Shown here in pieces: positions 4,213-20,465 of a stretch of DNA of 28,468 nt (its first letter is position 1; every line of letters starts with the position of its first letter). The position numbers were made by a program, and so were the translations under genes. The notes beneath the pieces were generated by a model. It saw only the letters and a program-made list of their open reading frames with translations, made no database searches and had not been told where the DNA came from. Source of the stretch: a virus (lineage: Duplodnaviria > Caudoviricetes); IMG/VR virus record IMGVR_UViG_3300020362_000095, positions 1 through 28,468 of that record. One strand, given 5' to 3'.

Positions 4213-4695
4213 TTAAGCTGTTGGTGAGTCTGAGGATATTCCAAAAAACTTTAATGCTATAACACCACCAGCACCTGCTGTTCCTGAAATTACAAGCTCT
4301 ACTTCATCTGCTGTTTCTGTAGCCGCTGTAGTTGCTCCGCCTGACATTCCTAAAACACCGTTACATGGGAAAAATCCCTTAAACCCTGTAGAATTTATAG
4401 CAACAGATATGCCGTCTACAAACCCATCAGTATCATCATCTGTGCCAATATCAACAAGATTGACATTATTTGCTGCTGCTGAAGTTACTGTTATAGCCAC
4501 ACCCATTGGAATAAAATTAGAAGGTATTCCAATAGAAGATTCTTTGTGAGAAGTTCCTGAAGAAGCAACAGTAATGCTTGTGGAATATGTGGACATGGTC
4601 ATTTCGTTTGTAAGACCACCTGTTGTAGAATTTTTAATTATTGTTTTAAATCCGTTTTCAGAACGAATAGGACCTGAAAAAGTTGAATTAGCCAT
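4213..4695 (-). CDS. Putative capsid decoration / minor virion protein
   Basis: 160 aa, G/S/T-rich, N-terminal MANSTFSGPIRS; AAGGAG RBS; directly after the MCP. Confidence 0.6.
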   Translation of the reverse strand: MANSTFSGPIRSENGFKTIIKNSTTGGLTNEMTMSTYSTSITVASSGTSHKESSIGIPSNFIPMGVAITVTSAAANNVNLVDIGTDDDTDGFVDGISVAINSTGFKGFFPCNGVLGMSGGATTAATETADEVELVISGTAGAGGVIALKFFGISSDSPTA

Positions 4696-4760
4696 TTTTA
4701 TCTCCTTGTCTTGGCAAATGTCGAAGTTAATTCTTCGTCAAGGTAATTATAGTATATATG

Positions 4761-13712: not shown

Positions 13713-13877
13713 TTTTATACCTCTTAAAACTTTACGTAAACTTTTGGTCTGATGTTCTAACGACCTGCGACATTTAACTTATAGTAACATTTAATAATCT
13801 ATTCGTGTAGGTCATGAAGATAATTAAATTAATTTCAGAAAAAATCAAACCTCATTCGTAATAATTTATAACAACTA

Positions 13878-14165: not shown

Positions 14166-14307
14166 TGGGCAAATATTGCATAAATAATGGAATGGCATTT
14201 AATGGCGTTTTAAGCGTCATACAGCCACGAAACGATATTCATGTATGTTATTACATATTTCTTTATTTCAGCGTTTTTGTTAGTGACATTGACTTTGGTA
14301 AGGTTAG

Positions 14308-14386: not shown

Positions 14387-14564
14387 ACAGCCTCTGTACG
14401 GCAAAACTGAACTGATTAGTGAAACATGGTATCAGTAGGAGTTGGGATGCTCCTCGAATTTTGGCAAGGATACAAAAGACACTCACAGCCCCCACAATGA
14501 AGATCGATGAGATTGCTCTATGGGCTAGGTAGGAACTACTAATGTTTTGCCCTATAGAGGCTGT
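14387..14564 (+). ncRNA. Putative ~180-nt multibranched structured RNA
   Basis: 21-bp closing stem 14387-14407/14544-14564 enclosing five hairpins; no credible ORF inside. Confidence 0.65.
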
Positions 14565-15750: not shown

Positions 15751-16827
15751 ATGCGAATATCAGAAGTAAAAAATGTAATGCAAAGTGTAATAATCCAAAA
15801 CTACGAGAATATAAAAAAGGGAGCAAGTAAAGACAGATTGATCGCTTTGTATATTCAAGGTGGTGTTGGTCAAGGCAAGACCTCAGCAGTTAGATCTATG
15901 ACTACAGATCAGCTTATCCTCGATGCTGTCCAAAGAATATTTGGTGTTAAAGTTGATAAGTTAGGTTTTAATAACTTAGGTTTAGCAATGTTTGATCCGG
16001 CAGAATTAGCCGGTTGGTGTGTGCCTAATGCAGATCAACAAAGCATGACTAGGCTTAGACCGGAGTTCTTGCCAAAAGATGGCTTTGGAATTTTATTTGT
16101 TGACGAGGTGGCTCAAGCTACTTTGATGCACCATAATATTTTTGGTCAGCTTGTAGATGAAAGAAGATTAGGTAATCATTACTTAGGCGATGGTTGGATA
16201 ATCATATCGGCAGGCAATAGGCTCAAGGATAAAGCCGGAAGTAACAAGCTTCCATCACAGCTTAGAGATAGATTTACATATTTAGATCTAGAAATAGATC
16301 TTGACGATCTATTAAAATACTATGCTGAAAATAATGTAGATCCAAGGATTAGCAGTTGGCTTAAATTTGACGATCAGTATTTATATGAGTTTGACGTAAA
16401 TGCTGACAGCAACTGTACACCTAGATCAGTTGAAAGAGCATCAACCTTAATGAATTTAGGCTTGGACAGCTTATCTCTTAGAGGTGTATTGAGTGGTCAA
16501 ATTGGAGAAACAGCATCCGGATCTCTTATCGCTCACATGAAATTGTATGATAAGCTACCGGACTTTGACAGCTTAGTTAAAGATCCAAGTAATACAGCAA
16601 TACCGGAAGACAGAGGAGTGCTGTATGCTCTTTGTGGATCATTGGCAAGTAAGATGACTATGGAGAATTGTTCTCCAATTCTCACTTATATGCAGAGAAT
16701 ACCGGAGCAAGAGTATATGGCTTTCATGCTTAAAGATGCAGTAATGAGAAATAAAACCTTAGTGACTAGTCCGGCAATGAAAGCTGTCTTGGGATCTCAA
16801 GGTAAGTTAAAAGACTTGTTACTTTAA
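15751..16827 (+). CDS. MoxR-type AAA+ ATPase
   Basis: Walker A GGVGQGKT, Walker B ILFVDE, sensor-1 SAGN, Arg finger LRDRF, sensor-2 TPRS; AAGGAG RBS. Confidence 0.9.
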   Translation: MRISEVKNVMQSVIIQNYENIKKGASKDRLIALYIQGGVGQGKTSAVRSMTTDQLILDAVQRIFGVKVDKLGFNNLGLAMFDPAELAGWCVPNADQQSMTRLRPEFLPKDGFGILFVDEVAQATLMHHNIFGQLVDERRLGNHYLGDGWIIISAGNRLKDKAGSNKLPSQLRDRFTYLDLEIDLDDLLKYYAENNVDPRISSWLKFDDQYLYEFDVNADSNCTPRSVERASTLMNLGLDSLSLRGVLSGQIGETASGSLIAHMKLYDKLPDFDSLVKDPSNTAIPEDRGVLYALCGSLASKMTMENCSPILTYMQRIPEQEYMAFMLKDAVMRNKTLVTSPAMKAVLGSQGKLKDLLL

Positions 16828-16898
16828 TCAACTTGGTATGTGGTATCCTGTAATGGGATACCACGACAAAACTTTACGTAATTTTTTAGGAGTTATTA

Positions 16899-18116
16899 AT
16901 GCAAGATTTAAAATTAGAAGATAAGTTCTCAAAGATAAGAATACAATTACTTTGGGATAGAGATGATAAAGGTCATGCCTTTTGGGGCATCATGTTAGCT
17001 AAAATGAAAATTATTGAGAATAATAAATTTGATACTTGTGCAACTGATGGCAGAGACATTTTTTATAATCGTCAATATTGTGAAAGCCTATCATTCGAGC
17101 ATTTAAAAGGTGTTATTGTTCACGAGGTTAAGCATAGGGCATTGATGCATCATGTAAGGCAACAGCATAGAGACACGACAGCATGGAATGTAGCTTGTGA
17201 TTTATCTGAAAATCCTATTATCATTGATGCCGGTTTACAGTTGCCGGATGGTGTATTGCTTGATCCAAAGTTTAAGGGATGGAGTGCAGAGAAAATTTAT
17301 AATGTGATTTATCCTCAAATCCAACAGCACATGAAGAAAATGCAAATGTCTGCAAGTGGTGCAAGTGACGATGGACAAAATGGTCAAGGCGAGCAACCAA
17401 GTTGGTTACAGCCTCAATCATGGGGCAATATCGTTGATAATGTCTGCGACAAATTGTCTCCATCTGAGTTAAAAGAAGAAGAGGCTAGTGTTAGGGAAGA
17501 TATTTTCCAAGCAGTACGTCAAGCTAAGGATCGAGGCACAGTTCCGGCAGAGATCAAAAAAATGATTGATAGAATGAAGAGGGCAGAAATAGATTGGGAA
17601 GATGTAATTCAACGTCATGTCCAAGGCGATGTTCCTCATAATTTTACCTATCGTAAGATCCACAGAAAATTTTATTATAATAATAATATCATTGCTCCAA
17701 CTATTGATTATGTTGGCTGTGGTCATGTAGTTGTTGGTGTCGATAGTTCCGGATCTGTCACAGATAAAGAACTACAATTATTTTTAGGTGGTCTTAATGC
17801 TTTGTCATTAGAACTTAAACCTAAATCTGTAACGATCATAACTTGCGACAGCAAAATTCAAAATGTCTATAAGTTTGAGCAAGGCGAAGAGATCACTAAA
17901 ATTTCTGCTGATGGCAGAGGTGGAACGTGTGTCATGCCGGTGTTCAATTACATTGAAGAACATGACTTAGATGTAGACAGCTTTATCTATTTTACTGATA
18001 TGGGAGTGCATGACTTTCCGGAAGAAGAAATGCCATATCCGGTTCTTTGGGTCAGCACAGATCTTGACAGCGATAAAGCACCAATTGGTCAAACTACATA
18101 TCTAAAGGTTGCTTAG
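16899..18116 (+). CDS. HExxH metallopeptidase fused to a VWA domain (DUF2201-type)
   Basis: ATDG, HEVKH, WNVACD; MIDAS DSSGS, GRGGT, FTD; adjacent to the AAA+ ATPase. Confidence 0.88.
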   Translation: MQDLKLEDKFSKIRIQLLWDRDDKGHAFWGIMLAKMKIIENNKFDTCATDGRDIFYNRQYCESLSFEHLKGVIVHEVKHRALMHHVRQQHRDTTAWNVACDLSENPIIIDAGLQLPDGVLLDPKFKGWSAEKIYNVIYPQIQQHMKKMQMSASGASDDGQNGQGEQPSWLQPQSWGNIVDNVCDKLSPSELKEEEASVREDIFQAVRQAKDRGTVPAEIKKMIDRMKRAEIDWEDVIQRHVQGDVPHNFTYRKIHRKFYYNNNIIAPTIDYVGCGHVVVGVDSSGSVTDKELQLFLGGLNALSLELKPKSVTIITCDSKIQNVYKFEQGEEITKISADGRGGTCVMPVFNYIEEHDLDVDSFIYFTDMGVHDFPEEEMPYPVLWVSTDLDSDKAPIGQTTYLKVA

Positions 18117-18140
18117 TGCCACTTTTGGAGAATTTCGAGG

Positions 18141-18197
18141 CTCTAGGATGGTCACACAGAGGCGAAACGATATCCCCATGTGTGATTATACCTAGAG
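18141..18197 (+). other. Long hairpin whose loop motif CGAAACGATAT is shared with 14218-14247
   Basis: CTCTAGG/CCTAGAG plus ATGGTCACACA/TGTGTGATTAT stems. Confidence 0.65.
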
Positions 18198-18207
18198 ATT
18201 TTCGTAT

Positions 18208-18260
18208 GCTGATATAGGAATGTGTGTTCCTACTGATGATCTCGAAAGAGTGAAATCAGC
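18208..18260 (+). ncRNA. Type III hammerhead ribozyme
   Basis: Stem III GCTGAT/ATCAGC, cleavage triplet AUA (after 18214), stem I TAGGAA/TTCCTA with loop TGTGTG, core CTGATGA, stem II CTC-GAAA-GAG, core GAAA; U-U at positions 10.1/11.1 is non-consensus. Confidence 0.85.
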
Positions 18261-18290
18261 TAACTAATATCATTATTTATGGAGTAACTA

Positions 18291-19307
18291 ATGCAATATG
18301 ATATAGAAAAAAATAATTGGGCAAAGATATCCCATTCCAAAGTTTTACAAGAACAATATATTTTAAGGAGTTATTTAAACTTTCTTAATCATGGATGTAA
18401 AAGTTTTGGATTTAATCAAAATCAATTAGTCCAATTAAAAAAGAGTAGTGCCACTTATTTAGCTACAAGTGGTTCAGCTAATCCATTAACTGACGATGAG
18501 AAAAATTTCATCGAGATGTTTTCAAGAGGAACTAATCATTATCATAATCATGGATTAGAAAGTATCTCAAGCTGTGCTGAGGCTGTCAGACAAATTAGAA
18601 GAAAGCAAAAACATAAAAGTTCTATTTATTCTAATAAGGTTGATGGTCAAAAAGTTTTTAGAAAAGAACGTGAATACACTCATGGATTTTTTAATGGGCA
18701 ATCAGTTCATAAAAAGTTTGAGACATTATCTCAATGCTTTGCACAGAAATGGTGGAGAGATAAGCAATCAAGAACCAATATTATTATTAAGGTTGATGCA
18801 CTCTCACAGAAAATTTCTTACGAGAAAGCTGAAAGAGGCAGAGCCGGTAATTGGAACTATAACAGCGATGAAAGAAATACATTAATTTTAACTCCATCGT
18901 GGTTTAAAAATGTATTCATGAAAGGCTTGGCAACCACAATATATAAAAGCAAAACAGCATTTATTGCTAAAGCTAATCCTATTGAGGTATCAGAAAAGAT
19001 TAAGTCTCAAAATTTAAATGCTTATGTCGTTGACGTTGTTACTTGTTACGATGGCATTATTGACGTTGAGCATGATCTTTACTGCTTGGCTTATGAAAGC
19101 AAACCATCAGAACAGCTTAGTGTTCACGATGATTTTGGTGGTAACGTGCCATTGCCTCAAGGAGAGGCTCATAAGATGGGTCTGACCAATAATGTTATCT
19201 ACACTCCGGCAGAGACAATTAATTCTGTGTCTTCTAATTTTCGTAGGGCAGAAAATGTCATGAGTGGCAGAGTTCAAAAAAATATACTTGATGCTATGGG
19301 AGTTTAA
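18291..19307 (+). CDS. Early hypothetical protein (338 aa)
   Basis: GGAG RBS; long ORF with no recognisable motif; starts 30 nt after the hammerhead. Confidence 0.8.
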   Translation: MQYDIEKNNWAKISHSKVLQEQYILRSYLNFLNHGCKSFGFNQNQLVQLKKSSATYLATSGSANPLTDDEKNFIEMFSRGTNHYHNHGLESISSCAEAVRQIRRKQKHKSSIYSNKVDGQKVFRKEREYTHGFFNGQSVHKKFETLSQCFAQKWWRDKQSRTNIIIKVDALSQKISYEKAERGRAGNWNYNSDERNTLILTPSWFKNVFMKGLATTIYKSKTAFIAKANPIEVSEKIKSQNLNAYVVDVVTCYDGIIDVEHDLYCLAYESKPSEQLSVHDDFGGNVPLPQGEAHKMGLTNNVIYTPAETINSVSSNFRRAENVMSGRVQKNILDAMGV

Positions 19308-19537: not shown

Positions 19538-19811
19538 TGTGGGCAAAAGTGGATGCCTAATTGTGAGTGAGGTTTTCTTATATTTTATTTCCCTCATTCA
19601 CAGTTTACGTAAATGCTATGTATCCCTAAATGCACATTCCCCCATTATTTATTTTGATGTGCATCATGGGCAAAGCTGTTGATCTTTTTAAAGCAATAGT
19701 CAGCTAATACATGGAAAGCCACACAAAAAAGGCTCTTAGAGCCTCGTGTAGGGGATGGTCAAGCATCCCCTATACAAAACCTACCAAATAGGCTTTATGC
19801 TCTGTGTGGGC
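19538..19811 (+). ncRNA. Cluster of structured non-coding RNA elements
   Basis: Stems 19559-72/19592-605, 19630-37/19657-64, 19674-78/19701-05, 19616-23/19707-14, 19730-35/19739-44, 19746-57/19764-75, 19719-25/19803-09. Confidence 0.6.
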
Positions 19812-19854
19812 ATATTACAGCCATTAATCATAATTAACAACAAAGGGAGACAAT

Positions 19855-20443: not shown

Positions 20444-20465
20444 CAAAACTTTACGTAAAGTTTTG
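20444..20465. promoter_or_regulatory. Perfect 22-bp palindrome CAAAACTTTACGTAAAGTTTTG (best copy of a dispersed operator-like motif)
   Basis: Related copies at 353-368, 13149-13168, 13726-13745, 16868-16887, 19604-19613, 26641-26660, 28433-28452. Confidence 0.8.

Follow-up and report, generated by a model that had tools for sequence, protein, structure and literature searches.

Gene content around the motif

The window, by which we mean the whole stretch of 28,468 nt analysed here, is a tailed-phage contig with terminase, portal, major head protein and primase/helicase genes, and the source labels of its relatives suggest that the phage is likely of marine habitat. On the plus strand, the gene for a 358-aa P-loop ATPase (15751..16827; phrog_1297, Walker A at residue 37) precedes that for a 405-aa protein with DUF2201 metallopeptidase-like and VWA-like domains (16899..18116; HExxH and DxSxS motifs), hereafter the peptidase-VWA protein. 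The PHROG 1314 label for the latter, ‘HNH endonuclease’, is likely wrong, since Pfam and the motifs give metallopeptidase-like and VWA-like domains. Only distant relatives of this protein are found in cultured phage records, the best listed sharing 26-29% identity, and the intergenic DNA around the motif described below has no match among these records. Further downstream on the same strand lies a gene for a 338-aa protein (18291..19307) led by a Shine-Dalgarno (SD) sequence; the protein matches nothing in Pfam, PHROG, NCBIfam, PDB or Atlas and has 14 metagenomic relatives. The strand and spacing of the flanking genes suggest that they are early and co-transcribed, and promoter matches are at chance level (29 versus 30.5 expected). 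A look-up of RNA sequencing runs listed none that covers the locus.

Several other non-coding features were observed in the window. A Mu-gpT-DE RNA match on the minus strand (4693-4743; 46.5 bits versus a gathering score of 49) lies immediately 3′ of the major head gene. A near-palindromic, operator-like AT-rich 21-mer is present in three copies that are 86-95% alike (13726-13746, 16868-16888 and 20445-20465), two of them intergenic and one just 5′ of the terminase small subunit gene. Finally, a 21-nt inverted repeat (90%; 14387-14407 and 14544-14564) surrounds 136 nt of non-coding DNA before the first short genes, and the RNA of this region (14387-14564) is a possible structured leader.

A complete type III hammerhead with a U-U pair in the core

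The intergenic region between the peptidase-VWA gene and the 338-aa gene contains, 98 nt past the stop of the former, a type III hammerhead ribozyme motif of the U10.1-U11.1/A17 subclass (18208..18260, plus strand), identified by its sequence, by shuffling controls and by conservation in a family of related loci. The 5′ strand of stem III (positions 16.6-16.1; 18208..18213) pairs with 18255-18260, in a helix that covaries across the family. The cleavage site predicted from the hammerhead consensus follows A17 of the triplet AUA (18214..18215). Next come the 6-bp stem I (18215..18232; 18215-20 paired with 18227-32) closed by the hexaloop UGUGUG, which fits the UNmYN loop-1 motif; the catalytic core CUGAUGA (C3-A9; 18233..18239); the segment 18240..18251, with U10.1 (18240), a 3-bp stem II (CUC-GAAA-GAG) capped by a GAAA tetraloop of the RNnA loop-2 type, and U11.1 (18251); and G12-A13-A14-A15.1 (GAAA; 18252..18255). 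The conserved core, C3-U4-G5-A6-N7-G8-A9 plus G12-A13-A14, is complete (18233-39 and 18252-54), the A15.1-U16.1 pair is formed by A18255 and U18213 and is unchanged in all 62 filtered family members, and N17 is A18214, that is, not G. Loops close stems I and II, whereas stem III is open, as in other type III hammerheads. Re-reading the sequence thus bears out the sequence-only reading, which had placed all hammerhead elements at these coordinates, had recognized U18240 and U18251 as a U-U at 10.1/11.1 and had proposed a loop I-loop II motif that the loop sequences indeed fit. Its further claims, namely a location downstream of the ATPase/peptidase-VWA genes and ahead of the 338-aa gene and a distance of 76 nt from the predicted cut to the ATG of the latter, agree with the gene calls around the motif. 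The only departure from consensus is the U-U in place of the canonical R10.1-Y11.1 pair. Natural U10.1-U11.1 hammerheads were described in 2011 in a paper that cites earlier mutagenesis as identifying U-U as the best-tolerated mismatch at 10.1-11.1 (PMC3088659); being a published natural variant, it does not disqualify the motif from hammerhead membership.

The motif is unique in the window. When both strands of the 28 kb are searched with a descriptor tolerating a 10.1-11.1 mismatch, this is the single type III site, and descriptors for the type I and type II permutations give no match; in dinucleotide shuffles, any loose match appears in 2 of 1000 and an equally good match in 0 of 1000. Our own covariance model R1, the training set of which includes the window copy, finds no second copy in the window, the next match scoring 10.6 bits. 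When short flanks are included, the minimum free energy structure is the hammerhead (-14.9 kcal/mol, z -2.07), and the probability of stem III is 0.80 with 12-16 flanking bases. For the bare 53-mer, pairing of the core CUGAU with the stem III 3′ strand, an alternative that the sequence-only reading leaves out, gives a rival fold better by 1.3 kcal/mol (-14.4 versus -13.1 for the hammerhead), and such a core-burying fold is possible in 18 of 62 family members. The Rfam hammerhead models, which the sequence-only reading had suggested as a check, fail to recover the motif: RF00008 gives it 18.5 bits versus a gathering score of 48.5, and the whole-window scan returns no hammerhead. None of the 11 family loci scanned reaches the gathering score, four members with a G-C pair at 10.1-11.1 score 42-48 bits and only two of six U-U loci yield any reported match.

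A widespread family with one geometry

The motif is kept in all six loci of the 338-aa gene family for which upstream DNA is available. In three loci at 54-56% protein identity and in one close relative, stem II has changed compensatorily with the U-U kept, and across the syntenic loci the core and loops are retained alongside three compensatory versions of stem II. The sequence-only reading had named core decay or a lack of stem covariation at homologous loci as grounds for refutation; instead, the core is kept and the stems covary. This covariation, together with the core and triplet, supports the type III identity proposed in the sequence-only reading, and we conclude from the sequences that 18208-18260 is a complete, genuine type III hammerhead motif that probably represents an active ribozyme.

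Scanning viral contigs with a pattern that fixed the core, the U-U and loop II and specified no stem returned at least 125 stretches (about 190 estimated), among them 104 distinct contexts, 68 of which form a 3-bp stem II; 65 of these 68 also form stems I and III. Double changes occur at 14 of 15 pairs among 62 members of fixed geometry, a count that is descriptive because this set was pre-filtered for pairing. Alignment A1 also takes in members recovered with no loop I pattern, and positions L1.U1, L1.G2 and L2.A4 do not vary in it. Scans of metagenomes and genomes, in which 10.1, 11.1 and the stems were all left free, covered a portion of the stretches estimated to exist (about 1700 and about 590, respectively); of the distinct matches among these, 108 of 113 from metagenomes and 118 of 125 from genomes form the full type III fold. 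The pair at 10.1-11.1 in the former is G-C in 73, U-U in 26, A-A in 6 and other in 3 cases, and in the latter G-C in 101, U-U in 9, C-A in 4, A-A in 3 and G-U in 1. Among the genome loci listed, 59 of 80 carry Patescibacteria-group titles. The geometry of the family is stereotyped, with a 6-bp stem I and UGUGUR loop and a 3-bp stem II and RAAA loop. Judged by sequence, the family is widespread in phages and Patescibacteria. The U-U members are conserved and covarying and make up about a quarter of the metagenome set (26/108), which argues that U-U marks a stable subclass rather than decay. Collectively, these scans reveal a family that the Rfam thresholds miss, its natural members numbering in the hundreds, sharing a single geometry and falling into three core classes.

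Three other records deserve mention. A 366-base record in the viral collection (L318), with both loop sequences identical to those here, looks from its size like a plant-virus satellite RNA and was set aside. A DUF805b RNA match above the gathering score lies near a hammerhead in L294 (1158-1190), and a weak twister-P1 match (24.5 bits) lies 600 nt from a U-U hammerhead in L081 (582-646).

Upstream hairpin and leader layout

Just 5′ of stem III ends a long imperfect hairpin (18136..18204, plus strand) with a z-score of -6.85 (0 of 200 shuffles), the arms of which are conserved in four syntenic loci and at which terminator prediction makes no call. Its inner part (18151-18188) recurs at 14216-14253 (74% over 38 nt), in an intergenic position before a gene block, and another intergenic region on the plus strand (19725-19815; z -6.3) contains four hairpins in a row and is similar at its start to the hairpin that precedes the ribozyme. 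On the other side, an AU-rich spacer (18261..18290) carries the SD sequence GGAG at 18281-18284.

Part of this layout is shared by the viral U-U members, 47 of 64 of which have an SD-led ATG 60-90 nt past the predicted cut, versus 2 of 42 controls taken at positions shifted by 300 nt. Similarly, folding of the 70 nt that precede the motif reaches z < -3 in 27 of 57 viral U-U members, whereas two sets of 57 control stretches give 4 and 1, and a strong SD and an AU-rich spacer are conserved. The spacing signal is weaker in metagenomes (11/24 U-U and 13/68 G-C) and amounts to 0/9 U-U and 6/98 G-C in genomes; a fixed leader length is a feature of the viral set. The test requires an SD, and Patescibacteria are often devoid of one. 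At the very 5′ end of the predicted 3′ product, stem I would form a blunt hairpin that leaves no base unpaired there, followed by a hairpin that buries the core and that, according to the folding model, would also impede re-ligation.

The genes flanking the motif differ among family members. In members with long flanks, the 35 downstream proteins include 4 peptidase-VWA proteins, 2 ATPases, 5 phrog_249 proteins, 4 representatives of unknown-function families and 20 proteins without a match, and the 33 upstream proteins comprise 6 peptidase-VWA proteins, 5 gamma-glutamyl cyclotransferase-like proteins, 3 others and 19 without a match. By analogy, the viral U-U layout is a natural RiboJ-like arrangement.

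Coupling between the cleavage-site base and the 10.1-11.1 pair

The base at position 17 follows the class of the 10.1-11.1 pair. In matched viral scans, from which contexts failing the fold filter were dropped (18 of 50 distinct G-C and 39 of 103 U-U), A17 is found in 56 of 64 U-U members and C17 in 29 of 32 G-C members. The unbiased scans give the same picture, with A17 in 22/26 U-U versus 13/73 G-C members in metagenomes and in 7/9 versus 10/101 in genomes. None of the 13 members with A-A or C-A (L422, L473, L485, L487, L507, L525, L562 and others) has A17. The DNA surrounding U-U members is lower in GC; the association is nonetheless present in every GC stratum (A17 in 13/16 U-U versus 4/16 G-C, 6/8 versus 3/31, and 10/11 versus 16/127), and one Patescibacteria contig carries adjacent G-C/C17, U-U/A17 and C-A/U17 copies. 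Low genomic GC as the sole cause was therefore rejected. The Patescibacteria contig of L506 and L507 packs at least six hammerheads into about 4.5 kb; G-C, U-U and C-A all occur there at 10.1-11.1, and every class has its own N17 preference.

Common descent is harder to separate from coupling. The link persists after clustering, and by corrected mutual information the column pairs 17-10.1 and 17-11.1 take places 15 and 16 among 820, below only 13 helix pairs and 10.1-11.1 itself, although their values exceed neighbour effects narrowly (0.26 versus 0.22). A tree built on 54 columns, without columns 17, 10.1 and 11.1, implies 43 changes of class. On this tree, independent pairs agree in 9.7 cases versus 0.9 (median p 0.012; 311 rows), and in the unbiased subset in 4.2 versus 0.1, which is not significant (median p 0.125; 211 rows). 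A weak hint of poorer folding comes from the stem III probability, 0.45 in U-U/C17 members (n = 5) versus 0.89 (n = 56). On these alignments, the U-U pair is coupled to A17, only partly separated from ancestry, and a shared ancestry or single origin of U-U/A17 is a possible explanation of the link. U-U is a tolerated core variant that A17 probably compensates or complements. A narrower U-U pair under G12-A9 might shift the general base such that a purine would be favoured at 17; alternatively, with a weaker stem II, C17 could favour a co-transcriptional trap, of the type reported for ELVd, that arises when the triplet and the core CUGAU pair with each other (PMC1636495). The coupling was not found in the open-access papers searched, and subscription papers or supplements may contain it. 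If true, it would be an unreported long-range coupling inside the best-studied ribozyme core.

Proposed transcript processing and alternative explanations

The ribozyme RNA would fold during transcription, with loops I and II docking, and would cut after A18214, splitting a polycistronic phage transcript. The upstream ATPase/peptidase-VWA message would then carry a strong hairpin close to its 3′ end, and the 338-aa gene would acquire a standard 76-nt leader with a 5′-OH and a terminal stem-loop, which would likely stabilise or insulate the downstream message much as RiboJ does. Self-cleavage after A18214 is likely, judging from the motif and its relatives. Fast natural hammerheads use the UNmYN/RNnA docking motif (PMC2632901), AUA is an active natural cleavage triplet (PMC1636495), and clusters of hammerheads located between prophage genes are active both in vitro and in Escherichia coli; in the same study, 4 of 18 consensus hammerheads assayed were inactive (PMC3088659). 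That cleavage serves to stabilise or insulate the 338-aa message is the reading towards which we lean, in keeping with the roughly twofold increase in mRNA reported for RiboJ, a 75-nt part derived from the sTRSV ribozyme (PMC6206723). More tentatively, and somewhat short of an even chance, the family could embody a second, internally compensated core (U-U with A17, as opposed to G-C with C17) that arose repeatedly, with phages using such cores in cassettes of hairpin, ribozyme and ribosome site as natural RiboJ-like insulators with tuned cutting rates.

The features that set the subclass apart could also mean that it is deliberately slow or conditional, partial cutting setting gene ratios or sensing ions or transcription speed. 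Two features expected to lower the rate, U-U and A17, occur together and are strongly coupled; in post-transcriptional cleavage A17 is slower than C17, and of four triplets compared AUA came last (PMC1636495); the core-burying fold available here and in part of the family would fit as well, and slow phage variants have been proposed to be conditional (PMC3088659). During transcription, however, GUA and AUA are faster than GUC and AUC in the ELVd hammerhead (PMC1636495), so A17 may speed cleavage rather than slow it, and the loop-loop motif is intact; we consider this reading unlikely. If the low Rfam score and the competing fold were instead signs of a catalytically dead structure or a chance match, one would have to set aside the invariant catalytic core and docking bases, the freely covarying stems and the absence of equally good matches in shuffled sequences, which makes this reading highly improbable.

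Other explanations accept cleavage and differ in its consequence. A 5′-OH can serve as an entry point for RNase J, which degrades the cleavage product of glmS (RNase J1; PMC3997798), so that processing can also destabilise a message; cleavage at a 5′ leader position, compatible with either sign of effect, might thus uncouple the downstream message or open it to 5′ exonucleases and dampen the 338-aa gene. The predicted 3′ product, however, starts with a hairpin and no unpaired 5′ base, conservation extends to the strong SD and the AU-rich spacer, and RiboJ-type processing increases expression in E. coli (PMC6206723), which together render dampening distinctly unlikely. It is also conceivable, albeit quite improbable, that hairpin, ribozyme and ribosome site travel together as a small cassette, mobile or selfish, moving from one intergenic site to another and aiding gene shuffling; equally improbable is the corollary that cleavage benefits the cassette more than the phage. 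Several contigs do carry more than one copy ahead of unrelated genes, and one family is common to phages and Patescibacteria; yet the site has been kept vertically while the downstream protein diverged to 54-56%, copies within one contig are widely different, the window has a single copy and no mobility gene is nearby. Stabilisation or insulation of the downstream message thus remains our preferred account. With one geometry, a fixed leader and defined core classes, both the processing hypothesis and the N17 coupling are testable with short transcripts.

Relationship to known hammerheads and leader ribozymes

The closest class is that of the sTRSV-like type III hammerheads (RF00008, clan CL00010), with which the window motif shares its topology, CUGAUGA/GAAA core and NUH triplet, as well as the 6-bp stem I, UN3YN hexaloop and GNRA loop II reported for that class (PMC2632901, PMC2553840). 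It differs from it in having U-U rather than G-C at 10.1-11.1, in scoring far under the RF00008 gathering score and in residing in a DNA phage instead of a circular RNA replicon. The U-U mismatch and the position between same-strand phage genes are shared with hammerheads of Perreault et al. (2011), for which the proposed role likewise is cutting of polycistronic RNA (PMC3088659). In that study, U-U is rare and the phage hammerheads form clusters, whereas here U-U is a stable subclass tied to A17 and the window has a single hammerhead. Both the U10.1-U11.1 mismatch and intergenic phage hammerheads were thus already known in 2011, and the window locus by itself is ordinary; what is added here, of modest value, is the leader layout in viral U-U members and the cleavage-site coupling. 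Reviews describe what hammerheads do in phages and bacteria as ‘largely elusive’ (PMC6765202, PMC6155905) and, should our reading be true, the family offers a ready test set for this open question.

Among ribozymes placed in leaders, glmS resembles the window hammerhead in that self-cleavage, predicted in our case, occurs in a bacterial 5′ leader and yields a 5′-OH, but glmS has an unrelated fold, depends on a ligand and is destabilising. The nearer counterpart is the RiboJ insulator, likewise a type III hammerhead with docked loops, which sits some 75 nt ahead of the start codon and creates a constant, hairpin-capped leader (PMC6206723). RiboJ is synthetic, whereas the window hammerhead is natural, with a U-U/A17 core and an intergenic location with an added upstream hairpin, and its insulating effect is a prediction by analogy.
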